NCBI GenBank assembly: GCA_050013655.1
Contig: JBEKEV010000011.1
Span: 13,703 to 77,702 of the forward strand
Length of the DNA: 64,000 bases
DNA from: Bacteroidota bacterium
GTDB taxonomy: Bacteria; Bacteroidota; Ignavibacteria; UBA10030
Reading direction: 5' to 3'
Shown here: positions 3,266-48,753 of the stretch, in pieces
How positions within the stretch are numbered: the first letter of the stretch is position 1
Layout: every line of letters starts with the position of its first letter
The notes under the pieces: generated by a model
Seen by the model: the letters and a program-made list of their open reading frames with translations, nothing else
What the model was told of the DNA's origin: nothing
The model's database searches: none
Translations under genes and position numbers: made by a program

Positions 3266-3305
3266 TAATGTTCCTCTTTTGTTTGTATTGAAGGATACTC
3301 AAGCT

Positions 3306-4619: not shown

Positions 4620-4738
4620 ACGATTACTTTCTTATTTTATTGCTAATGTTTTTGCAATAACATTTTCTCTCATAACGAAATAATGACCCACCTGACTGTA
4701 CCTGATATGAACAGGCGGTCATCTAAAATTAGAACACA

Positions 4739-7660: not shown

Positions 7661-7710
7661 TACAATACTGTTTTAAGTTTATTTTAAACAAATCCGATTT
7701 AATACGATTC

Positions 7711-9933: not shown

Positions 9934-10194
9934 AAAATTTTTTAGTTGAAAGTAATTCTATCAGTCTTCCTTCCTGCAAGTTATATTAAAGTTTAAATCT
10001 ATTCCATACTGAATTGATTAGGACAATTCCTGACGATGTTATGATTCGTTAAGGAACGGAAAAATGGACAAGAGGAAAATAGTCTTTCTTTATAAAGGAT
10101 CAGGAGATGCCTCTGTAGGAAGTGGATGCTTGCTGACAGGAGTATGAGATAAGATTACCCCGGCGTTTAAAAACAGGGGTATCTTTCTTCGCGA

Positions 10195-12186: not shown

Positions 12187-12225
12187 TTTGCGTAACTCCG
12201 ATGGCTACCTATTTTTGGAATTGGT

Positions 12226-12262
12226 AAAAAAAAGCGCCTGTGCAAGGTCTGCCACAGACGCT
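12226..12262 (-). terminator. Rho-independent terminator downstream of the 615-aa T9SS protein gene
   Basis: On the minus strand a GCGTCTGTG/CACAGGCGC stem (one mismatch, 10-nt loop) is followed by T8 (plus strand: A8 + gcgcctgtg...cacagacgc). Confidence 0.6.
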
Positions 12263-12285
12263 TTCCTTGAATCTTACTTTGCTGG

Positions 12286-14133
12286 TTATTTAAGCAACAT
12301 CATCTTCTTTGCTAATACTGTGCTTCCGGCTTCTAATTTATAGAAATAAACACCACTCGAAAGGTTCTTTGCATTAAAAGTAACGGCCTGAGGTCCAGCA
12401 TTCCTCATTCCATTTACCAATACTGCAACTTCCTCTCCTAATAAATTATACACTGCGAGCCTTACTTTCTCACTTTTCACAAGCGTGAAAGAAATTTCGG
12501 TAGACGGGTTGAATGGATTGGGATAGTTCTGATCCAGTTTGTAACTACTGACGACAGACGATGGCTGTTGTTTCACGCCGACAGTAATTGCAGTAGAACT
12601 AAGAATAGCATTGCCCCAATTCGCAGTTACCTGATAATCATTATTGCTTGGAGAATACCACCAATTTGAAGTATGTATACGACTACCTGCAGCAGTAGGT
12701 GTAATATCGTTATCATCCGTTTGCAATTGGAAACTGAATACCTTGGTACCAGATGTTCTATCAGCAGTTGTGAATCCTAAGCTATCCAGATTAAATTTAA
12801 ATGCTACCCGGTAGCCAGACCTGGAATTGAACATAGTATCGTTTTCTAACCCTTGATTGAAAAGTTTCCAATTATATTGGAGTCCCTTTCCGATATGATC
12901 TGCATAGGTTAACACATTCATCACAGAATCACGCGGTTGTGCCGGTCTGAGATTAAATTGATACGCGCGAGATGTAGGTGGATTTGTAGCATCGGCACCT
13001 CTGCCTACTACGGTTGTTGTAGATGTATGAGTATGGTTTGCATCGGTGAAAAACTCGATACCATCCATTTGCCAATCGATAGCGGTTACGGTATCAATAA
13101 CGTCGTCGTAGACTGTGAAAAGACCATAGATATATTGATTATCGTAGAGTCCATAGAATCTCCATCCTTGATCTTGCGGATTAGCACCGCTTGTAACACC
13201 GCTACTATTTGTGATATAATCCATAGTAAGCTGATTTGCTTGTTGCCAAACATTATCAATAGTACCATCCAAGGCAGGCGGCGTCGGAGTTTTTAGGAAC
13301 ACGTAATTTGTATCGATCAAATCACCAAAAACGGCATCGCCCCAACCCACAGTTGCCTGATAATCAGTATTTTGCGTTGAGGAGTTCCAATTCAGAATAT
13401 GGATACGACTACCTGCAGCAGTAGGTGTGACATCGTTATCATCTATTTGCAACTGGAGACTAACCTTTTTTCCAACGGCTACAGACCCAAGGCCTAAACT
13501 ATCCAGGTTAAAAGAAAACTCCACAAAATAACCACTTGGACCGCCATTACTTATAGACGATGTATCCAACATCCATTTATATTGGAGTCCCTTTCCGATA
13601 TGATCTGCATAGGTTAACACATTCATCACAGAATCAATCGGTTGTGCCGGTCTGAGATTGAATTGATACGCGCGAGAGGTAGGTGGATTAGTGGCATCGG
13701 CACCTCTGCCTACTACGGTTGTTTGAGATGTATGTGTATTATTTGCATCGATGTAAAACTCGATACCATCCATTTGCCAATCGATAGTGGTTACGGTATC
13801 AATCACATCATCCTGAACATAAAACAATCCATAGATTTTAGTACCATCATACAAAAATTTAGCCCAGCCGGAACAATCTGACCAGTCGGTTGGATAGCTA
13901 CCATTTTGTGGTAAAACATATTGCATCCATGTAGCATCTACGAGATTCCAAATTTGATCCTTCGTATAGTTGCCGATCGTCGGTGCAAGGCTCGTGCTTA
14001 TCTTCGGAATGATCAAAGCGCCGTCATTTGCGCCGCCTTTTATAATTTTCGCTTGAGCAATACCGACTACCAGAACTAATACAATAACAAAAAGTAAAAT
14101 TCTGTGTAACCTCATGACGTGTTTCTCCTTCAC
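12286..14133 (-). CDS. Secreted T9SS-sorted protein built from two tandem copies of a domain of about 235 aa; probably carbohydrate-binding, and the resemblance to CBM9/DOMON is not certain
   Basis: Signal peptide; two internal repeats (…TIDWQMDGIEF…VVGRGADATNPPTSRAYQFNLRPAQP…LTYADHIGKGLQY…DDNDxTPTAAGSRIH…); C-terminal KLDQNYPNPFNPSTEISF...YFYKLEAG T9SS tail. Confidence 0.6.
   Translation of the reverse strand: MKEKHVMRLHRILLFVIVLVLVVGIAQAKIIKGGANDGALIIPKISTSLAPTIGNYTKDQIWNLVDATWMQYVLPQNGSYPTDWSDCSGWAKFLYDGTKIYGLFYVQDDVIDTVTTIDWQMDGIEFYIDANNTHTSQTTVVGRGADATNPPTSRAYQFNLRPAQPIDSVMNVLTYADHIGKGLQYKWMLDTSSISNGGPSGYFVEFSFNLDSLGLGSVAVGKKVSLQLQIDDNDVTPTAAGSRIHILNWNSSTQNTDYQATVGWGDAVFGDLIDTNYVFLKTPTPPALDGTIDNVWQQANQLTMDYITNSSGVTSGANPQDQGWRFYGLYDNQYIYGLFTVYDDVIDTVTAIDWQMDGIEFFTDANHTHTSTTTVVGRGADATNPPTSRAYQFNLRPAQPRDSVMNVLTYADHIGKGLQYNWKLFNQGLENDTMFNSRSGYRVAFKFNLDSLGFTTADRTSGTKVFSFQLQTDDNDITPTAAGSRIHTSNWWYSPSNNDYQVTANWGNAILSSTAITVGVKQQPSSVVSSYKLDQNYPNPFNPSTEISFTLVKSEKVRLAVYNLLGEEVAVLVNGMRNAGPQAVTFNAKNLSSGVYFYKLEAGSTVLAKKMMLLK
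12874..13805. repeat. Intragenic tandem duplication with a period of about 704 bp; the core copies 12874..13100 and 13578..13805 are about 90% identical at nucleotide level, while the rest of each unit has diverged
   Basis: Direct comparison of the two stretches (tatattggagtccctttccgatatgatctgcataggttaacacattcatcacagaatca...). The plus-strand ORFs 12937..13296 and 13642..13881 are antisense shadows of the repeat. Confidence 0.8.
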
Positions 14134-14292
14134 TTTGGTTATATACTAAATAGTTAACTATTAAATTTACATCTTTCGCCTTTTTTCCACTCACCTCCAT
14201 TTCTTGCAAAAATAGTCCTCATGAAAAATAGTGAATAATTTTAATGATGATACAAGACAACTTTTAAAAATTTGTTACACAACACTGCCAAA

Positions 14293-15570
14293 TTATGGGA
14301 GATTCCGGCCAAGATATGGAGCACCAAGCAACGGTGTATTATCTTCTTTTGCCATTCCTATTTTATATAGGCTAGTTGCCGTAGATGATCTTAGATATAA
14401 ATATCTTCCCCCACCCCAAATAAGTTGACTAATCCCTGTAGGCAAAATATTGTTATAGTAATAAGGTAAAAGGGAACCGTTCTCCAGTATATATAAAGAA
14501 TAGTTTGCATTACCAAGAAGAGAAACTAAAACCGTACCGTCAGAGGCAAAATTAAAAGAACTTACGGTACAACCTCTTAAACTTGTATCAGCTGCTATAT
14601 TGACGACCGGTTGTTTACTTCCAACAGTACCGTCAGGATTGATTGGACTTCTGAATAAGCTTGTCGCATCAGCTGCATAGACGTAACCATTATATATACG
14701 AATTCCTACGAATGTAGTACCAGCATAGTCGGCACTGCCAACAACAACCGGTGTTGTCGATCCTTGTTTTATTAAAATCAATCCACTTTTTGATCCATTA
14801 AAATAGATATCTCCGTTACTATTGAAATCAAATACTGAAGAACTGTAAGCTGCAGAAAATGTTACATAGGCTATAGGCGTAGCACTAGCAGTATCAAGTT
14901 GATAAATTGATTTGGATCCGGCGAATGTAGCATACAAGAATCCATGAGGCCCGAATTTCATGTCAGAAAAGGCTTTGACAAAATCTGTTGCTTTATTATT
15001 AATTTTTGTCTTAAAGTAAGAAGTATCTTTATATGGAATTAAATCAATTCCATTAGGCTTTAACATAGTGATATAACCCGTACTCGCTATCCATAGAGTG
15101 TCACCCCCAGCCGTACCATTTTTGTTTGCTTCCATTACACCAACGATTCCCGTCGGTATGCCGGTCAGGTCAGATGAGCTTATTGGAGATTCCAAGTTAT
15201 ATGAAAACTTACCTACAGAATCTGCTTGAAGAATGACTGCATTAATCGTTAAAGCTCCAGAAATGACCGGCCTGTAGACAACCAAAGTATCGGCAGCAGC
15301 TGACATCCGTTTTATAATCGCTTGTTCTGATCCGAAATAAATCCAATTCGAATCAAGCTTACTGGAGAATTTTCCTATGATTGAAATTTCTCTCACTCCA
15401 GCAAGAGCAGAATTTGCCGGCAATACACCTGTAATAACAGATCCGGTTGCATAAGATCTATTGGGATCCCACATTGTTGGAGGAGTCGAGAAATTGTTGC
15501 ATGCACTCAGGACAACAAGCATGAGAATAAAAAGACCGAAAACAAAATAAAATATAATTTTTCTTTTCAT
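14293..15570 (-). CDS. Hypothetical lipoprotein, beta-propeller-like
   Basis: Signal peptide with lipobox (VVLSAC); repetitive YxxAxD/NGDIYF-type motifs; no recognisable catalytic motif. Confidence 0.45.
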   Translation of the reverse strand: MKRKIIFYFVFGLFILMLVVLSACNNFSTPPTMWDPNRSYATGSVITGVLPANSALAGVREISIIGKFSSKLDSNWIYFGSEQAIIKRMSAAADTLVVYRPVISGALTINAVILQADSVGKFSYNLESPISSSDLTGIPTGIVGVMEANKNGTAGGDTLWIASTGYITMLKPNGIDLIPYKDTSYFKTKINNKATDFVKAFSDMKFGPHGFLYATFAGSKSIYQLDTASATPIAYVTFSAAYSSSVFDFNSNGDIYFNGSKSGLILIKQGSTTPVVVGSADYAGTTFVGIRIYNGYVYAADATSLFRSPINPDGTVGSKQPVVNIAADTSLRGCTVSSFNFASDGTVLVSLLGNANYSLYILENGSLLPYYYNNILPTGISQLIWGGGRYLYLRSSTATSLYKIGMAKEDNTPLLGAPYLGRNLP

Positions 15571-15589
15571 AATGATACCATTCTATATT

Positions 15590-16609
15590 TTACATTGAGA
15601 AAGATACTGTAAATCTTTGGACATTATTAAATACTCCAAAAGGCGTATAGGAATAATCAATCTGAAAATTGGCGGAAGATATACCTAAACCGGAAGATGA
15701 AATTCCTAAACCATACGTAACTCCATCTTCATCATCCCCGGTAATATACCCGCCCCGTAATGCAATTAAATTCATAAATTGATACTCTACACCTATTTTT
15801 ATTTGTTCCGGATGAGACATGGGATGGGTAACATCGCATGAGAGAATCAAAGATTGTTTCGGCCCCTTCAAATCGTAGAAATCAAAAAGATTTGCCGATA
15901 TACCGACAGTAAATATTAATGGAAGCTGGAAACTTTCTTCTTCGTAAGTAACATCATTTGAAAAATTCCTTATCGACATTCCAAAATCAATACTTTTGAT
16001 ACCTGTTTTAAAATTTGTACCGAAGTCATACGCAACCGCACTTGCTACGTTCTGTTTGGTAACTACCGTGTTCGCAGCAGTGGGCACTGCACTTTTTCCC
16101 AACGATTGATAGGCAAATCGAACTTGAGCGCCGACACCAAAACGATCAGAGATCATTTTTGCATACCCGATCCCTATCGCCATTGCAGTTGGGTCCATAG
16201 TACCGGTGTCAATATACCCCTGGCTATTATTCCACACCATTGTTCCCAATACGTCGCCATAATCGACAGATTGAAAACTCAGGCCAAGAACACCGTAATC
16301 TCCAGACCAAGGGGATATGATAGCGCTACAAGATAAATATTTAATATCTGCTATCCATTTATTAACGCTCACATTAGCAGTAAAAAAATTTGGCATTTCA
16401 GCCATCGTTGCCGGATTATGAGTTAATGCCGCCGAACAACCGAAGAGCGAATTCACAGCATCACCCATAGCGCCAGCTCTTGCATCAGATGATATGCTAA
16501 GAAAATCGAAACCGGTCTGCGCTAACTTTTCTTGTTGACCATAGGATAGAGATGCAGACAATCCGATTATCATAATCACTGTCAGGTATGTTATTATTAA
16601 TCGTTTCAC
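15590..16609 (-). CDS. Outer-membrane beta-barrel protein of the FadL-like / PorV-PorQ type; possibly a T9SS-associated outer-membrane protein
   Basis: Signal peptide ending ...SYGQQ; N-terminal FLSISSDARAGAMGDAVNS resembles the FadL/PorV family entry motif; alternating hydrophobic pattern; aromatic C-terminus (FTVSFSM). Confidence 0.4.
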   Translation of the reverse strand: MKRLIITYLTVIMIIGLSASLSYGQQEKLAQTGFDFLSISSDARAGAMGDAVNSLFGCSAALTHNPATMAEMPNFFTANVSVNKWIADIKYLSCSAIISPWSGDYGVLGLSFQSVDYGDVLGTMVWNNSQGYIDTGTMDPTAMAIGIGYAKMISDRFGVGAQVRFAYQSLGKSAVPTAANTVVTKQNVASAVAYDFGTNFKTGIKSIDFGMSIRNFSNDVTYEEESFQLPLIFTVGISANLFDFYDLKGPKQSLILSCDVTHPMSHPEQIKIGVEYQFMNLIALRGGYITGDDEDGVTYGLGISSSGLGISSANFQIDYSYTPFGVFNNVQRFTVSFSM

Positions 16610-16641
16610 CTTCTTATTTCTCCTGTTTAGAATGCCACCTG

Positions 16642-17526
16642 CTAGTACGACAAAATGACGACTTTAAATTGATTGGCTATGCTATTACTTGGACTTGCTG
16701 GTGTTGGATTACTTATTTGCGACGGATTAGTTAATGTGAACCGGACCAAGTAAACACTCCCTTGATCGAGATGAATAGTATAACGTGCACTAATAACTGG
16801 TACAATTTCTATTTTGTTGTTACCCGACAAGATTCTTTCGCTGGAATTATATGCTGATTCTGTCGATATCGTTGACGAAGGGCTTACAACCGACGTATCT
16901 CTTTTCACAAGGTCAATCGAAACATAATCATTAATATTAGAGGTTGCGTTTGTGGCATTATAATAATAAAGCAAACTCGTATAGAAATATATATCCTTCG
17001 CTTGGGCAGATTTCAATACTGCATAGCTTACCTTGCCTGAATAGTTTACGGCTATTAACGAATCTTGATGAAGTTCCGGAAGGACAGCTGCCAATGAGTC
17101 AAATCCTGATAGAATAATCTGATTATCAATTGTATCTCCGAGACTCTGAGAGTGAACAATGGACCAAGTAACAGGTAAAGATCGAAATGAAACAGGAGTA
17201 GGCGGCGTCGAATTGCTTAAACTGATCGGCTGGCCTGAGCCGTCAAGCGGAACATACTGATAAGAGGCTGTAAAACCTTGAACATCATTGAGAGTATCAC
17301 TCGTTAATAAATTACCTGCCTTTAAATCAATATCCGATGGAGTAAAATTTTTGGCTTTGAAGTCAGTTGGTAACAAACTATTACACCCAAGGCATGCGAA
17401 AAATAATGCACTCACCAGAAATAGGAAAATAGAGCGAACATAACTATCTTGATAATGAGGGTACATTTCGTTCTCCAAATAATTTGTATTATCTGATAAT
17501 GATAAATTTCCGGATGATATTCTCAC
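16642..17526 (-). CDS. Hypothetical lipoprotein (the likely start is the internal Met at about 17466)
   Basis: An internal signal peptide with lipobox (FFACLGC) follows a 20-aa leader; Ser/Thr-rich; no known domain recognised. Confidence 0.4.
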   Translation of the reverse strand: MRISSGNLSLSDNTNYLENEMYPHYQDSYVRSIFLFLVSALFFACLGCNSLLPTDFKAKNFTPSDIDLKAGNLLTSDTLNDVQGFTASYQYVPLDGSGQPISLSNSTPPTPVSFRSLPVTWSIVHSQSLGDTIDNQIILSGFDSLAAVLPELHQDSLIAVNYSGKVSYAVLKSAQAKDIYFYTSLLYYYNATNATSNINDYVSIDLVKRDTSVVSPSSTISTESAYNSSERILSGNNKIEIVPVISARYTIHLDQGSVYLVRFTLTNPSQISNPTPASPSNSIANQFKVVILSY

Positions 17527-19783
17527 CCTTTCTCAAAATCAATTGATTACTCGTATCGTCATAAATATCTTGTGTAACTTCGAAATATGCAATATATAAC
17601 CCACTCACTACAATTTGCTTAGAAGAAGTCAGTGAATTCCATGTTTCATCACCGCTTCCATTTGTATGATTGATGGTCTGAATCAAATCCCCTGCTTCAG
17701 TAAATATTTTAATCACACAATATTTTGGCAACCCAAAAAATGCAAGCCGGTTTGCTACCGTTCTATCCGTGCCGAATTGAAGTGATGCTGCTTTGATATT
17801 GTATGGATTAGGAACTACTCGAATATCTGAAAGCTTATTGGCAGCTGGTCGCTGCAATGAAGCAGATATATTGGTCATCGTATAGAACATGTTACTTACC
17901 AAAGGCACGCCGGGTTCAATATCGTTTGTTGTCCCATTATCCTTGGTTTGGATATAATAAAAGTAGTTAAATCCTCGTTTTGCTGATTTATCATCATAGG
18001 AATTCGTTACAGTGCTCTTATCACAAGAAAATATCAACTCGAATTTTGTAGCGGTTGTAGTTTCTGCACGATACAGCCGATACCCGTCAAAAGTAGGCCA
18101 CGATTCTGCACTCTTAGACCATTGCAACGAAATTCTATCACCGCCCGATGTCACTGTAAAATCATCCGGCGGTGGCGGAGGCTGAGGAATATTGTAATGA
18201 CTGTTGTAGTTTGCTCGTGCACGCCGAAATGTTTGGAACAATGAATCCCTTCCACTAAACACCCAGGCATTCTTATAGATATTACCATCTGTAGTCGTGC
18301 CTCCATTCCAGGGATTCCAGGACCCTACAGGAAGTGTAGGGTCAGTAGAAGGAAGAGTAAGAGGTATCGTATTACCACTTTTACCATTTTGATACCAGGG
18401 CCACCAGCTCTTTACTATTTCGATATTTTTTTCACGACTTATTCCTGCAACTGCCTCGGCAATAACAATCCGGATACTATCGCCTGGTGCAAGTGTATAT
18501 GGCCCAAATCCCTGCTGGTTGCCATACCCGCCCGTATTTCCACCCCACGTATTGCCAAAACCTGTGGGCCATCCGTTTGCATCTTTTCCAAGTTGTTCGG
18601 CATGAGTTTTTGCATCATGACCGGATGTCATTGATTGATATTGCTGCGTCATGGTAATTGGATTAAACGGACTTGACTGAGTGATATTTTCTATGACACC
18701 ATCCGAACCCATAAATGTCGTCGTTCGCGGCTGGGTAGGATCATTTGCAGTGTCCTGCGGGGATGTATCTGCATGTAATACCATTTCACCTGTAAATCCG
18801 ATGCCACCCAGAATATGTCCATCCAGAAAATCTGGCGCACCAATATCATCCAACACTCCTGTCGAAGAAGATTGAGGTCCATAATATGCAAAGCTCGCAC
18901 AAAAATTATTCGGAGCAGGAAGTGTATGTGTCGCATCTTGTCCCACTGCATCATTGATAGTGTTATGTCCATAACTGATTTGGGGATATCCCCATGCCTG
19001 CTCATAGCCCTCATTATTATCGGCAAACCGATATCTGAAATCAAATACCACACCGGTCAGTGTTTTTGCCGGCGTGATTTGCCCTCCGGTATTATCGCTC
19101 AAACCCGTATTCTTAAAAACATATTCGTAGATGTAATAATTATCGTGGTACTGTTGCGTAGAGGCGAGGACTTTTCTATAGATTGTTATACCTATCGGTG
19201 TATTCACACTGTTGTAGACCATTCGATCCACAGGCAAATTTGAAACAATTCGATCTTGATCTGCCCCTCCCTCAGTAATAGCTTGATTAAGATCATTCGC
19301 CATAGTAGGTTGAGTAAGATCATTCTGATCAAGATCACTGGCTTTATTGCCATCTACGATAACCGTAGGCGCAGCAGAACGGCCAATCAATTTAAAATTT
19401 ACTGGATAGGAAGCAGAATTGACATACAGTGCCGCTCGTCCAAGAGGAATGACTTTGTAAGGATATGTTACACCATTTGTTGGATCTGTAAAATTCGTTG
19501 TACCAATCCATAATGCTTTTCCCACATTATGATCCGTAGACGGATATTGCGCAGGCCAGCGTAAGCCATCATCCTGATCTGTATTTAAATAACCCCTCCC
19601 CCTTCTGCCGTATTCAACTTCAGCACCAGTGCTGGAAAAATATTGCCGTAAAGAACTCACCCATAACCATTTAACGACCTGCGGTCCAAAAACCTGGGCT
19701 TGTAATTGCTGGGTAGTAATTATTCCATATGCACTATACAGCGAAATTACTATGAGAGCTTTTGCCAGATATTTTTTAATCAT
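17489..19783 (-). CDS. Large secreted protein with poly-Pro linker, FN3-like domain and a variant T9SS C-terminal domain; function unknown
   Basis: Signal peptide; PQPPPPPDDFTVTSGGDRISLQW (FN3-like); C-terminus VVPNPYN...VIKIFTEAGDLIQTI...SGLYIAYFEV...RKFIIIR resembles a Por secretion tail. Confidence 0.5.
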   Translation of the reverse strand: MIKKYLAKALIVISLYSAYGIITTQQLQAQVFGPQVVKWLWVSSLRQYFSSTGAEVEYGRRGRGYLNTDQDDGLRWPAQYPSTDHNVGKALWIGTTNFTDPTNGVTYPYKVIPLGRAALYVNSASYPVNFKLIGRSAAPTVIVDGNKASDLDQNDLTQPTMANDLNQAITEGGADQDRIVSNLPVDRMVYNSVNTPIGITIYRKVLASTQQYHDNYYIYEYVFKNTGLSDNTGGQITPAKTLTGVVFDFRYRFADNNEGYEQAWGYPQISYGHNTINDAVGQDATHTLPAPNNFCASFAYYGPQSSSTGVLDDIGAPDFLDGHILGGIGFTGEMVLHADTSPQDTANDPTQPRTTTFMGSDGVIENITQSSPFNPITMTQQYQSMTSGHDAKTHAEQLGKDANGWPTGFGNTWGGNTGGYGNQQGFGPYTLAPGDSIRIVIAEAVAGISREKNIEIVKSWWPWYQNGKSGNTIPLTLPSTDPTLPVGSWNPWNGGTTTDGNIYKNAWVFSGRDSLFQTFRRARANYNSHYNIPQPPPPPDDFTVTSGGDRISLQWSKSAESWPTFDGYRLYRAETTTATKFELIFSCDKSTVTNSYDDKSAKRGFNYFYYIQTKDNGTTNDIEPGVPLVSNMFYTMTNISASLQRPAANKLSDIRVVPNPYNIKAASLQFGTDRTVANRLAFFGLPKYCVIKIFTEAGDLIQTINHTNGSGDETWNSLTSSKQIVVSGLYIAYFEVTQDIYDDTSNQLILRKGENIIRKFIIIR

Positions 19784-19817: not shown

Positions 19818-22800
19818 TTATAAATTAAACGATAGATTAATGCCATAGTAAAATTGTCTTGGATTCAGAAAATCAAAGGAACTGTTGTTCGGCATATCGA
19901 TATATTCCTTATTATCTAAAATCTTTTTCATCTTGTTTTGATCTACTACAGACCAGCTACCATTGATATAGTTCATATATCTACCAGTTGGACTATCATA
20001 ATAGATAACAGTAGGATCGAAAGCAGATGATTGTGTATTGATTCCGTTTACGTTTCCGCTAAAAAGAATCGGAGTATATACGCCATCTGTACAATATGCC
20101 CCTACCCGATCATTGCCAGGAATATTTGTATTACTATATGCAGGGCTTTGAGGTAAATGCAGCGATTCCATATAAAAATTGAAGTCGCTCGGATCATAGA
20201 AGCTTTCTCCCGACAACCTCTTCGCATTCAATAAGTTGTTCGTCTCCATGAACACCGTTACTGCAAAATTTTTGAAAGAGAAAGTTTTATTGAGGCGAAT
20301 GTTTACATTGAAATAATCTGTAACCTGAACGTTATTTTGGATAGCGGTGGCTAGCTGCGGATTATATGTAAGCCATTGACCGGCTTTCCAGTTTGCTACG
20401 ATATTAAGAGACCAATCACCCAGAAGATCACCTCCGAGGAAATGAGGCCCAAAATTTATCGGTGTTAAAAACGTAATACTTGCATTAGCACGAGGTTGGG
20501 CAACCGGTGTTTGTCGAACAAGCAGATATAACGGATTCGTCTGACTATTGTCGAGTATTGCTTGTTCGGCTGGATTATCAGCAATGGCTACTTGGCCAAA
20601 TTGACCCGACGTTGCCACTTGGTATATGTAATTAATAAAACCCCGTACCCAGTCACCGGAAGTTTTTCTGAGAGTTAACTCAAGTCCTCGAACATCCGAA
20701 TAGCTATTGTTGTTGGCTGCATAGTAAGCAATACTTTTCTGATCACTCGTATAAAATGTAAATGCCTGCTGAGATGAAATATCATTATAAAAAGCTGCAA
20801 TTTGAATCAAGTATGTATCAAAGAGAGACTGATCAAAACCTAATTCATAAGAGACGGTTTGAGCTTGTGGCAAATTCGGATCACCATAATTGCGCAAATC
20901 GCCTGCTTGTCCACGACCTATTCTGTAAATCTCATCATAGGAAGGCATCTCTTTAAAGTGTCCGTAATTAAAATACAGTTTTGAACTTTCTGTAATCGGA
21001 TGCGAAATACCTAATCGGGGACTGAAAGAAATGTCAGTCTTAACACGTTCTTTCGCATATTGAATAGTATCATTATAGGCAGCGGAGAAAAAGGATTGAT
21101 TAAAAGGATCCGCAGCAGCATCAACCCAATCAGTATTTGGATTGCTTATGTCCATTCTTACGCCGAGATTGGCGATAAATCCATATGCTTCTATCTTATC
21201 CTGTACATACGCAGAGATAAGGTAGGGATTGAAATGCTGTTTCACCCAATCCACATCACTGAAAGCCGGATTCACTGTACCATAATTCATATTAAGATCG
21301 TAATATGAAAATTCAAATCCTGCTTTAAACATATGCTCTTTAGTAGCTTGACTTGTTATATCTCCCTTAATTTTCAGCGTATTCAGCTTGCTGGAATCAC
21401 GTGCAGTAGCACTGTGACCACCAAAGAATAAAGACGCATCTCCAATACCTGATGTCAGCTGAGAACTATATCCGTAAGGTGCTTCATCAACAAAATACCC
21501 CGGAGCTATTTCATAATTTTGGGCAGTATCCCTTGCAGCAATAGGTCCCGTGAGATAGCTACGATGTTCATCTTGTATACTTATTTCATAATACGTCGAT
21601 AAGCTTAACATAGAAGTGATTTTTGCACCTACATTGAAATCACTGACAACTGCCGGACAATACCAAGAATCATCATATACCCTGCTTGACCTTTGTTCAT
21701 ACGTAATACCAGCTATTTGATCTGGTGTTCGCAGATAGTCTGTCGGATTCCAAAATGGGTAAGTCCCTGGAGCCTGTGTGAGCCAAGCCTGATTGTAATA
21801 TCCGTTATCAGTCGCGTTAATAGCGACATTATAGGATTTACCTATCGAGGCATTTAGCAACAGTTTCGTTTTGTTGTTTATATCTGAATTCAACTTAATT
21901 GACCAGTTATAATCCTCATAATCTGGACGGCTGAGAGGAATAAGAAGCATTTCTTTGTTCATAATAAAACTTGTAAAGAACCGAAGATTGCCCAAATCCT
22001 CACCAATGATTGGTATAGGCCCGCCAATACTACCGTCAATATTATAATCGGGTGAGTTCGTAGAAGGAGTTAGTCTATGTTGGTACTCATAGAGACGTTG
22101 ACACGCTGCGGGCGAAAGATCAATACCCTGTTGCAAATATTGTTGAGAAATAGCGTTCCAGCCGACAAACTTAGGATATTGATTCTGAGTATATATGCTC
22201 CATGCCCCGTTATTAGTACCCGTCCAACAAACGGCAGGGTCCATATAGGGGCGGTTCCACATCGAATTAGGATCATACTCAGACATTCCGAAATATTTCT
22301 GTTGTGGAGGACTGTACTTTACATTTATGGAACCAGAATAATGAGAAACATCCCCTTCCTTTTGGACGATATTTACAACACCGGAGCGCGCCTGTCCATA
22401 CTCTGCGGCAAAACCTCCCTTTTCTATCGAAACTTCCTGAATGGAAGTTAAGGCAATATTAGAAATAGGTTTATTGTTTCTGGGATCACGTTGAGTTGTA
22501 CCATCTACATTAAGAAGCATGTCGCTTGCGTTGCCGCCTCTAATGACAAAACCATCTTCCACTCCTGCTTGCAAGCCCACCATATCATTAATCGAAGTTA
22601 CGGGAAGAATTGTCAATTCCTCAGGCTGTACTGTACTGACACTGGAGGATACATCCTTTTTGACGACGTGTCTTTCAGCAACAACTTCAACAATTCCCGA
22701 TTCAATTGCTTGAGTCTCCATTTCAACGTTAACAGTTGCAGTTTGATCTATAAGAACACGTATTCCATTCACAGTGACCGTCGAATAACCAACCATACTT

Positions 22801-23039
22801 GTTATAATATTATGGATACCAGGCGGAACAGATAGAATTGCATAGTACCCATCAATATCTGTGGCCGCGCCCAGAGATGTTCCCTTAACAATGACATTAA
22901 GGCCGACAAGCGGTTCACGAGTTTCTTTGTCCACAACTCTGCCAGCTATTTTTCCTGTCGTCCCTGCTAAAATAATATTTACCGTCAGTGCAAAAAGTAA
23001 GGCAAAATAGATAAGAATTCGGTATTGACCCGATACCAT
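19818..23039 (-). CDS. TonB-dependent outer-membrane receptor, SusC-like, with N-terminal CarboxypepD_reg domain and no SusD partner
   Basis: 1073 aa; GKIAGRVVDKETREPLVGLNVIVKGTSLGAATDIDGYYAI (CarbopepD_reg); a TonB-box-like VEVVAER; plug and long beta-barrel; C-terminal aromatic residue; strong AAGGAG Shine-Dalgarno. Confidence 0.8.
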   Translation of the reverse strand: MVSGQYRILIYFALLFALTVNIILAGTTGKIAGRVVDKETREPLVGLNVIVKGTSLGAATDIDGYYAILSVPPGIHNIITSMVGYSTVTVNGIRVLIDQTATVNVEMETQAIESGIVEVVAERHVVKKDVSSSVSTVQPEELTILPVTSINDMVGLQAGVEDGFVIRGGNASDMLLNVDGTTQRDPRNNKPISNIALTSIQEVSIEKGGFAAEYGQARSGVVNIVQKEGDVSHYSGSINVKYSPPQQKYFGMSEYDPNSMWNRPYMDPAVCWTGTNNGAWSIYTQNQYPKFVGWNAISQQYLQQGIDLSPAACQRLYEYQHRLTPSTNSPDYNIDGSIGGPIPIIGEDLGNLRFFTSFIMNKEMLLIPLSRPDYEDYNWSIKLNSDINNKTKLLLNASIGKSYNVAINATDNGYYNQAWLTQAPGTYPFWNPTDYLRTPDQIAGITYEQRSSRVYDDSWYCPAVVSDFNVGAKITSMLSLSTYYEISIQDEHRSYLTGPIAARDTAQNYEIAPGYFVDEAPYGYSSQLTSGIGDASLFFGGHSATARDSSKLNTLKIKGDITSQATKEHMFKAGFEFSYYDLNMNYGTVNPAFSDVDWVKQHFNPYLISAYVQDKIEAYGFIANLGVRMDISNPNTDWVDAAADPFNQSFFSAAYNDTIQYAKERVKTDISFSPRLGISHPITESSKLYFNYGHFKEMPSYDEIYRIGRGQAGDLRNYGDPNLPQAQTVSYELGFDQSLFDTYLIQIAAFYNDISSQQAFTFYTSDQKSIAYYAANNNSYSDVRGLELTLRKTSGDWVRGFINYIYQVATSGQFGQVAIADNPAEQAILDNSQTNPLYLLVRQTPVAQPRANASITFLTPINFGPHFLGGDLLGDWSLNIVANWKAGQWLTYNPQLATAIQNNVQVTDYFNVNIRLNKTFSFKNFAVTVFMETNNLLNAKRLSGESFYDPSDFNFYMESLHLPQSPAYSNTNIPGNDRVGAYCTDGVYTPILFSGNVNGINTQSSAFDPTVIYYDSPTGRYMNYINGSWSVVDQNKMKKILDNKEYIDMPNNSSFDFLNPRQFYYGINLSFNL

Positions 23040-23392
23040 AGACTTTCTCCTTTAATAAATTCTTTCTAGTCCAACTCTATATTATCTAACAAAATAAATA
23101 ATTGCCTATCTACAATAACTTAAAAATCGACACAATGATTCTTTAATATTCAGATGTTCTATCTTTGTTATGCGAGAATTTATATTTTGGATTCTTTGAA
23201 ATGAATTTACAATATATTGATTTTGTACTCTAATGAAATCGAATGAACTGCTTCTTAACGCGTTTCGATACATCAATGCAAAGAACACTATACTTAAATG
23301 AAGAATATTTCTGATTACGGAACCCGAATTGAGGCAAGCATTACAACCACAATGCCTTTTCAAAATATAACACCTTTCTTCAAATCCTTTTC

Positions 23393-23408
23393 CGCAACAT
23401 CTGTACCA
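23393..23408 (-). promoter_or_regulatory. Candidate sigma54 (-24/-12) promoter for the TonB-receptor operon
   Basis: Minus-strand TGGTACAGATGTTGCG has GG and GC elements at the canonical 12-nt offset (consensus TGGCAC-N5-TTGCW). It lies about 350 nt upstream of the receptor ATG, next to the sigma54-activator gene. Confidence 0.35.
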
Positions 23409-23524
23409 AGTAAAAATCCGGTTTTTTCTGCGAGAGTTAGTAAGTAAGTTAGGAGGGATTATTATGCTAATAATGACTGCATTATCAGCCATGATAATTG
23501 ACCTAAGGGAATAAATATCTAGAG

Positions 23525-23555
23525 AGAACTGCGAATTAGCGTATAAAGCAGTTCT
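23525..23555. promoter_or_regulatory. Inverted repeat AGAACTGC-N15-GCAGTTCT; a possible enhancer (UAS) for the sigma54 activator, or a stem-loop at the 3' end of the response-regulator gene
   Basis: Perfect 8-bp arms, about 130 bp upstream of the candidate sigma54 promoter. No U-tract follows on either strand. Confidence 0.25.
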
Positions 23556-23572
23556 TTAGAAAAATATGCACA

Positions 23573-25036
23573 TTAATTTTTCAATCCAAGTTCTTTGCAC
23601 ATCCTGTGAAAATTCGGGGGAGCGAGACCGAGTTTTCGGGCTGCTTCTGCATCAGACGAAGAATTCTTACGGATAAATGTGAAGTATTTTTTTCTGAAAA
23701 TGTTTTCCATCTCTCGCAACGAAGGAGCATTTTCAGAATCCTGAAAGAATACTGCATTACTATCGGTATATTGATGAGATGATGGATGAAGAGACAATAC
23801 TTCCTTAATAATTTCCGGAGTAATGATGCTTTCTTCTCGAAGAAGAAGTCTTTGAACAACATTCTGGACTTCTCTGACATTGCCGGGCCAATCATATCTT
23901 TTCAAGACATCAAAAGCAGTTTCTTCCGTGGTAGGAGTCGGTCTGATCATTTCGATACTCATTTGACGCATGAAGTGTTCCCAGAGAACCAGGATATCCT
24001 CCGGTCTCTCTTTGAGAGGAGGTGCATAGAGAGGGACAACATGTAAACGATAGAAAAGGTCTTCACGAAACCTCCCGGCAGCAATTTCTTGTTGTAACAC
24101 TTTGTTCGTTGCAGCAAGAATCCGTACATCCACTTTAACTTTCTCTCCTGTTCTCCCAATCTTTTCAATCTCACCATCCTGGATGACCCTCAATAATTTA
24201 ACCTGTGCAATAAGAGGAAGTTCTGCGACTTCATCAAGAAAGATTGTGCCATGATTGGCTTGTTCAAAAAGCCCTCTTTTGTTTGCATTTGCCCCCGTGA
24301 ATGCACCTTTCTCGTAACCGAACAATTCGCTTTCTATCAATTCATCTGGAATACTGCCGCAATTAATGGTAACAAAATTTTCTAATCTTCTTTTACTTTC
24401 ATAATGAATATTGATCGCAACCAGCTCTTTCCCTGTACCAGATGGGCCAGAAATCAGCACAGTCGCATCGGTCACCGCTAACTGTTTGATTTGTGCTCGA
24501 ATCTTTTGGATTTGTTCTGAAACTCCGAGGATTTTTGTGCGAGATAGCATACCTTCGACATTACGCAGCAGCTTCTTTTCTGACCGCGACTTTTCACTCT
24601 CAAGCCTTTTCCTTTGATACGCGTTGAAGATGCTCAGGATGAAGTCGGTTGGTTGGTAAATATAATCTTCAATATCAATAGGATACTTTGTACAGTACCA
24701 AAATGCCCCTGCCTGAAGAATGCGATTCGCAAAATCAAAGTCTGTGATATTGACAGTCATCTTTGTAATAACGATGATTTGATGTGAAGGTGCCATTCGT
24801 TTAATTGCCCTTATCAGCGCTTCCCCCATCGTACCGCCGGCAATCTGGAGGTCCATAATCACGACATCATATTGCTCATTGTGTTGCGCAAGCAGTTCTA
24901 AAGCCGAATCACCATTTGACACAACCTCGCGAATTTCAATTTGATGCTCGAATGGTTTGAGTGTATTTCGTACTCGGCGAACATCAAACTCTTCATCCTC
25001 AATAAGTAAGACTTGTATACGTTCATCAGTTGGCAT
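23573..25036 (-). CDS. Sigma54-dependent two-component response regulator (NtrC family)
   Basis: REC domain (VLLIEDEEFD...IMDLQ), AAA+ sigma54-interaction domain (GPSGTGKE, GAFTGA, the FRED-like box EDLFYRL), C-terminal Fis-type HTH. Confidence 0.9.
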   Translation of the reverse strand: MPTDERIQVLLIEDEEFDVRRVRNTLKPFEHQIEIREVVSNGDSALELLAQHNEQYDVVIMDLQIAGGTMGEALIRAIKRMAPSHQIIVITKMTVNITDFDFANRILQAGAFWYCTKYPIDIEDYIYQPTDFILSIFNAYQRKRLESEKSRSEKKLLRNVEGMLSRTKILGVSEQIQKIRAQIKQLAVTDATVLISGPSGTGKELVAINIHYESKRRLENFVTINCGSIPDELIESELFGYEKGAFTGANANKRGLFEQANHGTIFLDEVAELPLIAQVKLLRVIQDGEIEKIGRTGEKVKVDVRILAATNKVLQQEIAAGRFREDLFYRLHVVPLYAPPLKERPEDILVLWEHFMRQMSIEMIRPTPTTEETAFDVLKRYDWPGNVREVQNVVQRLLLREESIITPEIIKEVLSLHPSSHQYTDSNAVFFQDSENAPSLREMENIFRKKYFTFIRKNSSSDAEAARKLGLAPPNFHRMCKELGLKN

Positions 25037-25057: not shown

Positions 25058-26560
25058 TCAATGCGGTGCAATAAAGATAAATTTACATCCTCCAGCTGGA
25101 AGGTTCTCTGCATCGATCTTCCAACCGAAGCGTTGCGTCGCAAGTTCATACGCAATATAACAACCATATCCAGAGTGTTCCTTGCCCGCTAAGGTGCCAG
25201 AGGTTACTTGTTCTTGGAATATTTTCTTGATACCGTTCCCATCACTTTCCAAAAGATCTGGGCGAATTCCTGTTCCATTATCCGCAATCGTGATTATCGA
25301 TTGCTTCAGCGTAGGATTGTATTCTGTTTTAATGGTGACGACTTTATTCTCTACTCCAGAATGGTCTACACTGTTCTGGATAATTGGTTCGAGCACTTCC
25401 CAAATAACATATTCATTGATGGCAACTTCAGGCATCATAGGATCAAGCTGAAGTTCAAACTTCGTTATCGGTCGGTTATCCGACACCCGCTGAAAAATGT
25501 TTTCCACAATAAATTGAATACCCTCATTCACGTTCGTTCTAAACAGCGGGCTTCGAATTGTTTGGATAGGCGGATCATACCATTTCATATCATAGATCAC
25601 CCGAGCAATGAAGCTGGCGTATTTGCCGATGCGGTTCTTTATAAAGCCGATGTTTTCAGCCGTTAAACTTCGCAGATCCTCTTTAATAAATCCGACAATT
25701 TTTTCAGCTTTATGATGAGTATGATAGATTCGCTTTGTAAAAAGCATTTCTTTTTGATGATTGATTTGCTCTGCCAAATGCAATTTCTGTTCTTCAAATA
25801 GCAACCGCTGCACCTCGTTCCGCTCGGTAAGGGTCCGTGTCGAGATATAGAACATCGCAAGTAATCCTACAATGATGAGAGCAGAATAAACCAATGCTGT
25901 CTGACTATAGTTCTTCGACATTTCCTCAGTAAGAAATGTCAGATCAGGAATAGTCTTCATGTATACCGCACCGACAAATTCGCCCCGCGGAACGAACGGA
26001 ATAAAGACATGAAATATCTGTTCCCGCTCCACGATAGTGTAGGTTTGCTCTATTTTGCGAAGCGTATCCTGTACCGATTGGAACAATCGAATTGCCTCGG
26101 CATGTATGCTATCCGAACTTTGAATCCTTTTCGTCTCTCCAAACAAATAGTCATACAATTGTTTACCATCGTCGATTGCAATGATTGCGTTCCCGTGTGG
26201 AATAAGTATAGATACACTTTGAACGTTTTTGTCTAACAATTGCTGGCTAAAAATGATGTTAAAATCCTGAATGATTTTCCGTTCTTCGCTGTCAGAAAGT
26301 TTTGCATTCGAACCCTTCGATTCTAAAAGCATTTCAATGGAAGTAGTAGTCAGATTAGCAATACGTTCAGCGGCATCCTGCTGATACCATTGCTGAGATT
26401 TGACAAATACTTTCCGGAGTGAATTTTGATTCATGAAGAGAACAATGAACTGGAAAACAATCAGTACCAGCGCAATGACTGTGATGTGGCGGATTTCAAT
26501 CCGATATTTATGATATCTGTCCCGAAACCGTTGAGGAGTATTTTGTTTCTCTCTTTTCAT
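25058..26560 (-). CDS. Membrane sensor histidine kinase with a periplasmic sensing domain of about 175 aa
   Basis: Two TM segments flank the periplasmic domain; H-box-like region (IYHTHHK); HATPase_c motifs (DNGTGI, GYGCYIAYE); 4-bp overlap (ATGA) with the upstream SBP gene. Confidence 0.8.
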   Translation of the reverse strand: MKREKQNTPQRFRDRYHKYRIEIRHITVIALVLIVFQFIVLFMNQNSLRKVFVKSQQWYQQDAAERIANLTTTSIEMLLESKGSNAKLSDSEERKIIQDFNIIFSQQLLDKNVQSVSILIPHGNAIIAIDDGKQLYDYLFGETKRIQSSDSIHAEAIRLFQSVQDTLRKIEQTYTIVEREQIFHVFIPFVPRGEFVGAVYMKTIPDLTFLTEEMSKNYSQTALVYSALIIVGLLAMFYISTRTLTERNEVQRLLFEEQKLHLAEQINHQKEMLFTKRIYHTHHKAEKIVGFIKEDLRSLTAENIGFIKNRIGKYASFIARVIYDMKWYDPPIQTIRSPLFRTNVNEGIQFIVENIFQRVSDNRPITKFELQLDPMMPEVAINEYVIWEVLEPIIQNSVDHSGVENKVVTIKTEYNPTLKQSIITIADNGTGIRPDLLESDGNGIKKIFQEQVTSGTLAGKEHSGYGCYIAYELATQRFGWKIDAENLPAGGCKFIFIAPH

Positions 26561-27885
26561 TTGATCAGCACTTCGTTTGAACGAATAAGTTCGTCAATAC
26601 GGGCGAGAGCCTGATCGACAGAAATTTCTCGCTTGATTGCGAGATGTGCAAAATGAGAAATTATATCTGAAACCTTTGTATATTCGACAAGGGCAGGTCG
26701 ATGAAATCCACGACGGAGTAATCGATGGAAAAACGACAATTCATTATGAGTACTCAGGAATACACTATCTTCATAGACAGAATTGATAGCCGGCAAATAT
26801 CCCATTCGTTCAAATATCATTCGTTGAATTGCTTCGCTTTGAAAGAACCGAATGAATTCAATGGCTTCTTTTTTCTTTGTGGAAGATTTTGATATCATCA
26901 AATTCCAACCACCGAAGACAGAGGTCGATGGTCTTCCTTTGAAATGAGGAAGAGGTGCTTTGGCAATGTATTCGAGCTTAGACGGATCTGAGTACGAAGA
27001 ACGTAGATTTTGGACAAAATCAGGCCAGCTGCGTACAAAAACACCATCGTGGTCGAGCATGTATTTATTGCACAAGAATTCATCGAAGTCCGTCACCTCT
27101 TGAGGCGTAGTTCCATCTTTCACAAAGTCAACCATCATTTGAAGAGGTTTCGCTGCTGATGGAGAAAGAAAATGGAACTTGTTCGATTTTAAAAAATCCG
27201 GATCATAACCAACTGCTAATTCGAGGTAATTGCATACCAATCCCTCATAATCTTTTGCCGGGAAAAGATAGAATGGTCTCTTCATAAAAGTTAATCGCTT
27301 GCGCAATTGTGCCATTTCTTCCCAGGTCATCGACTCCTGGAGTCGCTTCTCAACAGCATCTGCATCCAGCAATTTTCGAATAATATCACGTCGATAATAC
27401 AAAAGGCCAACATCTAAGTACATCGGCATAGCCACAAGTGCTCCTTCAAATACACATGACTTCAGAGCATCTTTCAATAAACGTTGTTTCTCATCCATGG
27501 AAAAGTAGGAATCCAGCGGTTCACTCCATTTTGCAAAACGCGGGACCCAAATCAAATCGACAGCAAAGATATCGAGTTTTTCGCTCTTGCTGCGAAGCGA
27601 ACGTGTAAGCAACTCTTTCCGTTCGTTCGTACTGAATTTCGAAAAAGGCAGATTAACGGGAATGACTTCAATCTTTCCTGCATACAAGCGATTGAACTCG
27701 TCAATCGCCAGCTGATGTGAGGGAGAAATATTATCCGCGTAGTATAACTTAACAGGCTGGTTTTTTTCTTCCTTATGGAACACACCAAGAATTGTCGTAA
27801 GCCATCCTATACCAATAAATATTGGGACAATAAGGATTGCTAAAATAAGTAAGTACCTCTTATGCATAAGATGATTTCTTCCCAT
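26557..27885 (-). CDS. Membrane-anchored family-1 extracellular solute (sugar)-binding protein, orphan (no ABC permease or ATPase partners); likely a ligand-sensing partner of the kinase
   Basis: N-terminal TM anchor; SBP_bac_1-like sequence throughout; translationally coupled to the kinase gene; no permease genes adjacent. Confidence 0.7.
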   Translation of the reverse strand: MGRNHLMHKRYLLILAILIVPIFIGIGWLTTILGVFHKEEKNQPVKLYYADNISPSHQLAIDEFNRLYAGKIEVIPVNLPFSKFSTNERKELLTRSLRSKSEKLDIFAVDLIWVPRFAKWSEPLDSYFSMDEKQRLLKDALKSCVFEGALVAMPMYLDVGLLYYRRDIIRKLLDADAVEKRLQESMTWEEMAQLRKRLTFMKRPFYLFPAKDYEGLVCNYLELAVGYDPDFLKSNKFHFLSPSAAKPLQMMVDFVKDGTTPQEVTDFDEFLCNKYMLDHDGVFVRSWPDFVQNLRSSYSDPSKLEYIAKAPLPHFKGRPSTSVFGGWNLMISKSSTKKKEAIEFIRFFQSEAIQRMIFERMGYLPAINSVYEDSVFLSTHNELSFFHRLLRRGFHRPALVEYTKVSDIISHFAHLAIKREISVDQALARIDELIRSNEVLIK

Positions 27886-28191: not shown

Positions 28192-28545
28192 CTAATCGTT
28201 ATCTGTTGTACATTTATCTGACTTTTGAAATGCTTTGTATATTTTCTTCCACAAATGTGTAACATTTTTTTCGTTTCTGCCGGAAAAGAAAATATGTTCT
28301 TCTAAATCTTGCGAGAACTCTTCCCTTTGAGATATTGTACCAACTGATTGACCAATACGTGCGGCGGAACCGATACCATCAGATGAACATGATCTTTGGA
28401 AAGATGCCCTTGGATGATCTCGACATCGTAACTTCGACATATCTCTCTGATCAATTCGCGTGCTCGTGTTGCAATCTCACCTTGCAAGACTGGCTTGCGA
28501 TATTTCGTGATCCATACCAGGTGATACTTACTATCATAGACTCAT
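28192..28545 (-). mobile_element. tnpA: IS200/IS605-family tnpA (Y1 HUH transposase) remnant, a pseudogene with multiple frameshifts
   Basis: Minus-strand translation gives M-S-L (frameshift) YDSKYHLVWITKYRKPVLQGEIATRARELIREICRSYDVEIIQGHLSKDHVHLMVSVPPHVLVNQLVQYLKGKSSRKI(stop). The C-terminal part (…HLWKKIYKAFQ…) is in another frame. HxH and YH..W..KYR are IS200 TnpA hallmarks. Confidence 0.65.
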
Positions 28546-34498: not shown

Positions 34499-34529
34499 GT
34501 TCTCCGTTAATTATTTTTGAACGAAAGCA

Positions 34530-36029: not shown

Positions 36030-36092
36030 AAAAATCTCCTAACCTTGATACACCGATGAGTTTGTAATTATTATAAATTCTTATTAAAGATG

Positions 36093-38219: not shown

Positions 38220-38235
38220 ACATCCACCTGAGTTA

Positions 38236-39207: not shown

Positions 39208-39303
39208 TTCATCGTATCTATCTATCGCTGGAGAATAGAACCCCGTGTGTCACCTGTTTCATAGAAAAGAGTGCGTACTGGAAAAATACTATTCATCTAA
39301 AAA

Positions 39304-42225: not shown

Positions 42226-42246
42226 ATTTTTACCTTGCTCAAATTA

Positions 42247-43332: not shown

Positions 43333-43355
43333 TCCACAAAATCTATTATAAAGGG

Positions 43356-46676: not shown

Positions 46677-46677
46677 C

Positions 46678-48587: not shown

Positions 48588-48723
48588 AGAGTATTCCTTT
48601 TTTCGTTTTGTGTGTGTGGAGACGAATACAGTTTTGCACCTGATAACGAATGTCTATTCATTTCTTCAGCCCATAGTGTCACGTTCCGTGGTTCAAAGTT
48701 CAATGCAATGGTTCAATACTATT

Positions 48724-48739: not shown

Positions 48740-48753
48740 GAACATAAAAAAAA

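Follow-up and report, generated by a model that had tools for sequence, protein, structure and literature searches.

A putative sigma-54 promoter and a putative paired-palindrome enhancer between an NtrC-type regulator gene and a TonB-dependent receptor operon of Ignavibacteria

The DctB/DctD and AtoS/AtoC systems are two-component systems whose bacterial enhancer-binding proteins (bEBPs) switch on genes for the transport of carbon substrates. The polysaccharide utilisation loci of Bacteroidota are regulated by SusR, by hybrid two-component systems or by pairs of extracytoplasmic function (ECF) sigma and anti-sigma factors. The sites bound by bEBPs are dyad-symmetric and usually lie roughly 80–150 bp upstream of the promoter, and the role of the GAFTGA motif of these proteins has been described (PMC7057263). 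In Ruminiclostridium cellulolyticum, the CuaD-CuaS-CuaR system is reported to sense the breakdown products of cellulose and to induce uptake genes and a cellobiose phosphorylase (PMC10384115; PMC5663094). Here, we describe an intergenic gap that separates the gene of an NtrC-type sigma-54 regulator from that of a TonB-dependent receptor in a Bacteroidota bacterium of the Ignavibacteria (contig JBEKEV010000011.1 of assembly GCA_050013655.1). The whole stretch that was analysed, positions 13,703 to 77,702 of the contig, is 64,000 nucleotides long and is referred to as the window. Exact-protein look-up and genome matches assign it to a population of Ignavibacteriae from peat or fen metagenomes. 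The gap probably holds a complete sigma-54 control module, made up of a −24/−12 promoter and an enhancer of two palindromes (P1 and P2) to which the product of the adjacent regulator gene would bind.

Genes for a solute-binding protein, a sensor histidine kinase and the regulator, then the gap of 533 nt and the receptor gene, follow each other consecutively on the minus strand according to gene-family scans (Table 1). An initial annotation of the window had proposed a sigma-54 promoter in this gap, and that proposal is strongly supported. The element TGGTACAGATGTTGCG has its GG at 23407-23406 and its GC at 23395-23394, with 10 nt between them, which is the spacing of sigma-54 promoters. A scan with a sigma-54 position weight matrix (PWM) built exclusively from distant sites, 19 in number, ranked this site first in the 64-kb window, both strands considered. 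Pattern counts within the window are less telling. For the relaxed pattern TGG-N8-TTGC, 14 matches compare with an expectation of 8.8, while the strict pattern TGGYAY-N5-TTGCW has no match in the window because the final base at TGGTACAGATGTTGCG is G. The promoter motif is therefore non-significant when judged from the single sequence.

The assignment is carried by comparison with related loci. Five orthologous loci from species-representative genomes (L001-L005), with receptors 72–94% identical to that of the window, were aligned over the whole gap. The −24/−12 element is kept in this alignment while its flanks diverge, and the sole change is a C to T substitution at −12 (GC to GT) in L003. 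Most of the leader between promoter and receptor gene has been replaced in L003, yet its promoter is intact except for the −12 C, and the arms of both palindromes are kept. Regulator homologs with 71–88% identity were drawn from further assemblies, and every one of them is followed by a −24/−12 element. Searching metagenomes with the regulator gave 80 loci (58–100% identity), and promoter elements were counted over 67 non-identical relatives. The pattern TGG[CT]A[CT]-N5-[CT]TG, sought on the sense strand in the 500 nt that follow the regulator stop codon, is present in 37 of these 67 relatives. No match was found on the antisense strand or in 99 kb of regulator-coding DNA, and shuffled sequences gave a mean of 0.8 loci. 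Relatives with GC-rich genomes carry the canonical form TGGCAC-N5-TTGC, as in TGGCACAGGCATTGC, TGGCACGGGACTTGC and TGGCACGCCTGTTGC. AT-rich genomes of the family have TGGTAY as the −24 element, and GC-rich genomes have TGGCAC. In loci whose first target gene codes for a type IX secretion system (T9SS) GH2 enzyme, a CBM9 protein or an SSF transporter, the start codon follows 42–125 nt after the element, which is a normal promoter position. Sigma-54 promoters keep a fixed distance between −12 and +1, from which the transcription start of the receptor operon was predicted.

The regulator gene next to the gap encodes an NtrC-type protein, as had been proposed in the initial annotation. The protein consists of a REC domain, a sigma-54 AAA+ domain (Sigma54_activat Pfam match of 2.7e-67), an AAA_lid domain and a Fis-type C-terminal helix-turn-helix (HTH), and NCBIfam alignments to NorR and NtrX reach its C-terminus. 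The GAFTGA motif is intact in the translation, which ends in the tail ...AARKLGLAPPNFHRMCKELGLKN. Against NCBIfam no equivalog cutoff was reached; AtoC and NtrC are among the top matches, all of them below cutoff. The order of the solute-binding protein, kinase and regulator genes is preserved among relatives. Conservation in orthologs, enrichment in the family, canonical forms in GC-rich relatives and an adjacent regulator with GAFTGA motif and HTH thus support the sigma-54 reading of the promoter.

Palindromes P1 and P2 lie between the promoter and an inverted repeat, AGAACTGC-N15-GCAGTTCT, which had been proposed as the enhancer; both fall inside the region covered by the initial annotation, where they had gone unnoticed. 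Their arms are invariant and their spacers variable in L001-L005, a pattern that is typical of a protein-binding dyad. The P1/P2 pattern has a single occurrence in the window, with 0 expected, and two 7-bp repeats with loops of 3–4 nt arise in 1.4% of shuffles of the gap. The palindromes were surveyed at 38 distinct related promoter sites carrying an upstream palindrome (L001-L096). Two TTATYR-N3/4-YRATAA palindromes, 20–23.5 bp apart, are present at 33 of the 38, and their half-sites are 10–11 bp apart from centre to centre. For 23 sites the centre of the proximal palindrome is at −84/−85, and for a further 14 it lies between about −92 and −107. These positions fall into the classes −84/−85, −92/−94, −102/−104 and −106/−107, which are separated by steps of roughly one helical turn. 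At these distances from the promoter, P1 and P2 sit towards the promoter-proximal limit of the range described for bEBP sites (PMC7057263).

Strict palindromes are concentrated behind the regulator gene, with a density of 2.26/kb in the 500 nt that follow it and 0.035/kb elsewhere in the same loci, a 65-fold difference. The four palindrome pairs found elsewhere are each followed, 75–105 bp downstream, by a −24 element of the TGG[CT]AC type; the −12 sequence is TTG at the right spacing in two of them and GTG in a third, and for the last it would lie beyond the end of the locus. Extra modules of this kind, with a palindrome pair and a TGG[CT]AC-type −24 element, are located past the first downstream gene in L054 (4805-5300), L065 (6337-6460) and L088 (4670-4790). 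They suggest that one regulator controls several adjacent promoters. The HTH tail, SDAEAAKKLGLAPPNYHRMCKELGLK, is almost invariant throughout the regulator family, and it appears to match the constancy of the half-site. P1 and P2 are taken to be the enhancer because of their conserved arms, their rarity in the window, their pairing across the family, their 65-fold enrichment after the regulator gene and the invariance of this tail.

Table 1. Positions of the regulatory elements and genes in the window. Centres of sites are given relative to the predicted transcription start.
Feature	Position	Strand	Basis or remark
Sigma-54 type −24/−12 element, TGGTACAGATGTTGCG (TGGTAC-N5-TTGC)	23393..23408	-	Orthologs, family enrichment, PWM
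Predicted transcription start (+1)	23382 (within ~2 nt)	-	Inferred from the fixed −12 to +1 distance
A-tract/T-tract between enhancer and promoter, AGAAAAAACCGGATTTTTAC	23410..23429	-	Conserved in alignment
Proximal palindrome P2, ATTATTA-N3-TAATAAT, centre −84	23458..23474	.	Conserved in all orthologs
Distal palindrome P1, ATTATCA-N4-TGATAAT, centre −107.5	23481..23498	.	Arms in L001-L005; equivalents in relatives
Perfect inverted repeat, AGAACTGC-N15-GCAGTTCT, centre ~−158	23525..23555	.	Probably incidental
Intergenic gap between regulator and receptor genes, 533 nt	23040-23572		
Leader, 343 nt, conserved, non-coding	23040..23382	-	Alignments; conserved blocks 23187-23211 and 23053-23074
Shine-Dalgarno sequence AAGGAG, 7 nt before ATG	23047..23052	-	Read from sequence; invariant in alignments
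TonB-dependent receptor, SusC-like N-terminus, first operon gene	19818..23039	-	Pfam CarboxypepD_reg (CarbopepD_reg_2), Plug
Probable remainder of operon	827..19783	-	Pfam; common strand, mostly short gaps
NtrC-family sigma-54 enhancer-binding response regulator	23573..25036	-	Pfam Response_reg, Sigma54_activat, AAA_lid_14
Sensor histidine kinase	25058..26560	-	Pfam HATPase_c
Solute-binding protein, family 1, membrane-anchored	26557..27885	-	Pfam SBP_bac_1, SBP_bac_8; N-terminal hydrophobic anchor

In the mechanism that we infer from these elements, from their conservation and geometry and from their co-occurrence with the regulator across the family, sigma-54 RNA polymerase would sit on 23408-23393 as a closed complex. 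The membrane-anchored solute-binding protein, which is proposed to sense sugars on behalf of the kinase, would detect a periplasmic oligosaccharide, probably a fragment of beta-glucan or cellodextrin, upon which the kinase would phosphorylate the regulator. The kinase translation has hydrophobic segments at about residues 26–44 and 222–240 that enclose an extracytoplasmic domain of about 175 amino acids. Two dimers of the phosphorylated regulator could then occupy the tandem sites P1 and P2, oligomerise, loop across the A/T-tract and remodel the closed complex. An intrinsic bend in this tract is possible; no consensus for IHF was seen in it by eye. ATP hydrolysis and the GAFTGA loop would open the promoter, and the transcript would run through the leader into the receptor, glycoside-hydrolase and transporter genes. 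In relatives the target genes are likewise glycan-related, encoding T9SS GH2 enzymes, CBM9 proteins and an SSF transporter.

Several observations weigh against this account. The element TGGTACAGATGTTGCG departs from TGGCACG-N4-TTGCW at three positions, and its lead in the PWM scan is narrow (12.7 bits against 12.6 and 12.0, a margin of 0.1–0.7 bits), with both runners-up inside open reading frames (ORFs). Thirty of the 67 relatives carry no such element directly after the regulator gene. Among the 38 family sites, the −12 dinucleotide is GC in 19, GT in 12, GA in seven and GG in none; half of them thus lack the canonical −12 C, which is unusual for sigma-54, and a modified recognition rule is possible. 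No RpoN-box peptide was found in the window and the 97 loci (642 kb in total). A literature search on sigma-54 or RpoN in Ignavibacteria or Melioribacter returned nothing relevant, and the paper on the I. album genome refers to 16 sigma factors but does not name RpoN. The spacing classes of the proximal palindrome include −106/−107 and are separated by steps of about 9.5 bp, so helical phasing is approximate. Binding of the regulator to P1 and P2 is proposed from their co-occurrence, and it is predicted from sequence that the promoter is used and that the transcript has a leader of 343 nt.

The best surviving alternative is that the receptor operon is transcribed mainly from a sigma-70-type promoter in the leader or by read-through from the solute-binding protein, kinase and regulator genes, the −24/−12 element being a minor promoter or one that makes leader RNA only. 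We consider this improbable. The leader is long, and in some relatives it is more conserved than the neighbouring coding DNA, which implies that it has some function. It also includes a weak TAGGCA-16-GATAAT match at 23108-23081, and no terminator-like site was found anywhere in 22900-23700, a range that takes in both the regulator stop codon and the receptor ATG. Sigma-70-like matches are nevertheless at the number expected from shuffles (3 versus 3.2), and the match at 23108-23081 is not kept in L004, L012, L020 or L003, as read by eye from alignments. The module of upstream palindromes and promoter, by contrast, precedes every receptor-type locus, including those in which the leader has been replaced, which would be hard to explain if it were unused. 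A sigma-70 promoter in the leader or read-through from the regulator operon could still be an additional source of transcript.

The implied 5′ untranslated region had been put at about 340 nt, which agrees with the 343 nt measured from the predicted start. The description of the region as AT-rich and non-coding also holds, as the gap has a GC content of 30.8% (42.1% for the window) and the leader has no conserved ORF. Leaders of about 258–480 nt occur only where a TonB-dependent receptor gene comes first. In L005, the 268 nt at the 3′-end of the leader are 91% identical to the window, compared with 79% for the flanking coding DNA. In L003, the leader has been swapped for an unrelated one between sequences that are otherwise close to the window (98% identity in the last 600 nt of the regulator gene, 93% in the receptor gene). 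Restriction to receptor-first loci, conservation above that of flanking coding DNA in some relatives and cassette-like exchange between near-identical genomes bear on the idea that the leader represents a novel cis-regulatory RNA confined to operons led by a receptor gene in these Ignavibacteria. This idea is tentative and, on balance, unlikely. Rfam gave no match at gathering score in the window, and only chance-level matches in 23000-23620 (E ≥ 0.31). The leader folds no better than its shuffles (minimum free energy z of +0.96), and RNAalifold returned a weak consensus of −3.1 kcal/mol for eight leaders. The invariant blocks 23187-23211 and 23053-23074 could pair and thereby constrain the region immediately 5′ of the Shine-Dalgarno sequence. 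This long-range helix is speculative; it shows no covariation and is broken in L004. If the leader did act as RNA, it would add a post-initiation checkpoint to sigma-54-driven transcription, in the form of translation control, docking of a small RNA or protein, or RNA processing.

Two coding interpretations of the same DNA were rejected. A conserved small ORF in the leader is contradicted by 1-nt indels among close relatives. A 128-aa ORF at 23106-23492(-) is likewise interrupted by 1-nt indels in close relatives, is missing from other relatives and has no family match. This ORF overlies the enhancer, promoter and leader and is annotated in public assemblies (L010 and L011), where it is probably a false gene call over regulatory DNA.

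The inverted repeat AGAACTGC-N15-GCAGTTCT, proposed in the initial annotation as the regulator's binding site at an otherwise genuine sigma-54 promoter, is present at 23555-23525, its centre 132 bp upstream of the 5′-end of the promoter element. Its role as the enhancer was not sustained, and we regard it as very unlikely. The repeat is a dyad of 8 bp without mismatch, its distance from the promoter is one that an enhancer could have, and it is partly kept in close orthologs, including one double change from G:C to A:T in L005. Perfect 8-bp inverted repeats with a loop of 3–20 nt are, however, found in 28% of dinucleotide shuffles of the gap, and there are 32 in the window, so this one is not beyond chance. 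As read from the alignment, the five orthologs L001-L005 retain 7/8, 5/8, 4/8, 6/8 and 6/8 of its Watson-Crick pairs, and no alignable counterpart is present in either of the more divergent loci L012 and L020, though the promoter and P1/P2 are retained in both. The distance between its half-sites is 23 bp from centre to centre, as opposed to 10–11 bp in the palindromes that track the regulator, and the repeat bears no likeness to TTATCA. It therefore appears to take no conserved part in the module. The repeat was also rejected as a dispersed repeat, being a single copy in the window even when 3 mismatches are allowed. As RNA it would fold with −12.2 kcal/mol (z of −2.2) around a loop of 15 nt; this loop, the lack of a T-run and the absence of any terminator-like site in 22900-23700 led to its rejection as an intrinsic terminator. 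It is probably incidental; at best it could be a weak hairpin at the 3′-end of the regulator mRNA.

There is similarly little to favour a sigma-54-dependent promoter in which P1 and P2 are operators for another protein, such as a Fur-like repressor. The heptamers of the Fur 7-1-7 box are TGATAAT and ATTATCA. A Fur-like protein is a candidate because the TGATAAT/ATTATCA heptamers here resemble Fur-box units and because receptor genes are classic Fur targets; the gene downstream of P1 and P2 does encode a TonB-dependent receptor. The arrangement differs from a Fur box, which would be TGATAAT-N-ATTATCA or the 19-bp GATAATGATAATCATTATC overlapping a promoter; here the heptamers have the opposite orientation and are separated by spacers of 3–4 nt. 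At −84 and −107, P1 and P2 do not overlap the promoter, unlike a Fur box. The palindrome pair also precedes promoters of GH2, CBM9 and SSF genes, which have no link to iron, the palindromes track the regulator gene 65-fold, and the receptor has the CarboxypepD_reg domain of glycan-type receptors. That the −24/−12 match arose by chance in AT-rich intergenic DNA is effectively refuted, since its unimpressive single-sequence statistics are outweighed by its conservation, its presence in 37 of 67 relatives against 0.8 expected and 0 on the antisense strand, its constant partnership with the palindromes and its canonical forms in GC-rich relatives.

The receptor gene and the genes that follow it form a cluster for the utilisation of beta-glucan or cellodextrin. 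Behind the receptor, whose match to SusC/RagA in NCBIfam falls below its cutoff, come four ORFs of unknown function, a CBM9/T9SS protein, an SSF transporter, a GDSL esterase, GH3-CBM6 and GH5 enzymes and a GH94 phosphorylase, all of which would be co-transcribed with it. The four ORFs (764, 294, 339 and 425 aa; 14293-19783, minus strand) have no Pfam match, and a search of the 764- and 294-aa ORFs against NCBIfam gave no match either. No SusD homolog was detected in the locus by Pfam and NCBIfam scans, the latter covering only the 764- and 294-aa ORFs among these four. The four ORFs may encode uncharacterised surface glycan-binding components of a non-Bacteroidota utilisation locus.

Upstream of the sensor genes, the remnant of a truncated IS200-like Y1 transposase gene (28305-28541, minus strand) lies between the genes of an SSF transporter and the solute-binding protein. 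Its Pfam Y1_Tnp match (8e-28) ends at model position 80/121 and is preceded by a stop codon. A second carbohydrate cluster (32102-49824) on the same strand as the first encodes GH94, an MFS transporter, GH3, an aldo-keto reductase, GH2, GH5, an alpha-galactosidase fragment, galT, galK and an SSF transporter. The upstream end of this cluster is occupied by the gene of a LacI-family regulator (48754-49824).

Two loci from other genomes show different arrangements of the same components. A Melioribacter roseus-type contig (L097, 6001-7461), chosen as a cultivable test case, encodes a regulator of 61% identity in the same order of solute-binding protein, kinase and regulator genes; 12 nt behind the regulator gene lies an unrelated nucleoside-phosphorylase-like gene. 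Within 6 kb of this regulator there is no enhancer–promoter module, and its targets therefore lie elsewhere in that genome. In another Ignavibacteriota genome (L006, 3484-3958), a receptor homolog of 42% identity is preceded by a divergently oriented 359-aa ORF, putatively of the LacI family, and by an operator-like palindrome, TGCAAACGTTTGCG, with no sigma-54 module. This locus pairs the same kind of receptor with a different regulator and is uninformative about the promoter of the window because a putative LacI-type regulator is present instead.

With P1 and P2, a plausible but wrong enhancer call is replaced by a well-supported one. The resulting rule for the family is a pair of TTATYR-N3/4-YRATAA palindromes, 20–23.5 bp apart, the proximal one about 84–107 bp upstream of TGG[CT]A[CT]-N5-[CT]TG. 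It covers a widespread Ignavibacterial sensor family that combines a solute-binding protein, a kinase and a sigma-54 regulator, and it allows glycan-responsive regulons of uncultured peat and sediment Ignavibacteria, organisms relevant to carbon turnover in fens, to be predicted from metagenome-assembled genomes. In addition, sites of this lineage often have another base in place of the canonical −12 C, and the 128-aa gene call in public assemblies is apparently an artefact. The design follows the textbook for bEBPs and sigma-54, and no concepts need to change. It is a textbook module in an understudied phylum, with a reusable enhancer–promoter rule, and novelty might be hidden only in its conserved, swappable leader.

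Among described systems, NtrC (NRI) and glnAp2 of enteric bacteria (PMC7057263) share with this locus a regulator of REC, AAA+ (GAFTGA) and Fis-type HTH domains, and two dyad sites about two to three helical turns apart, some 80–140 bp upstream of GG-N10-GC. Activation by a partner kinase through phosphorylation is also proposed here. The half-site is TTATCA rather than of the TGCACC type, and the sites of the window are at −84 and −107. An oligosaccharide perceived through the solute-binding protein is the probable signal, whereas NtrC responds to nitrogen status. Further differences are the host phylum, Ignavibacteriota, a −24 element that reads TGGTAC and the frequent replacement of the −12 C within the family. 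DctB/DctD with dctA and AtoS/AtoC resemble the locus in having a periplasmic-sensor kinase and an NtrC-type regulator beside a sigma-54-dependent uptake operon with tandem sites. The locus differs from them in its additional solute-binding protein, in an outer-membrane receptor as the first target, in its glycoside hydrolases and in a regulator that reaches no equivalog cutoff.

CuaD-CuaS-CuaR, as described, likewise has a gene for a solute-binding protein beside those for the kinase and regulator, and a GH94 phosphorylase ends the cluster of the window; the likeness is one of function and gene order. The host of CuaDSR is Gram-positive, its targets are an ABC transporter and cbpA, and the portions of the reports drawn on here describe no sigma-54 activator or promoter (PMC10384115; PMC5663094). 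Polysaccharide utilisation loci of Bacteroidota share the glycan operon led by a CarboxypepD_reg receptor, secreted or T9SS hydrolases and an adjacent dedicated sensor. The present locus differs from them in having a sigma-54 bEBP as its regulator and a strong Shine-Dalgarno sequence, and it yielded no SusD homolog. The PRD-type activators of Firmicutes, LevR and CelR (PMC10864463), also place genes for cellobiose or other sugars under sigma-54 control with upstream activator sites. They act through PRD and phosphotransferase system (PTS) domains and PTS phosphorylation, whereas the activator proposed here is a response regulator with a REC domain.

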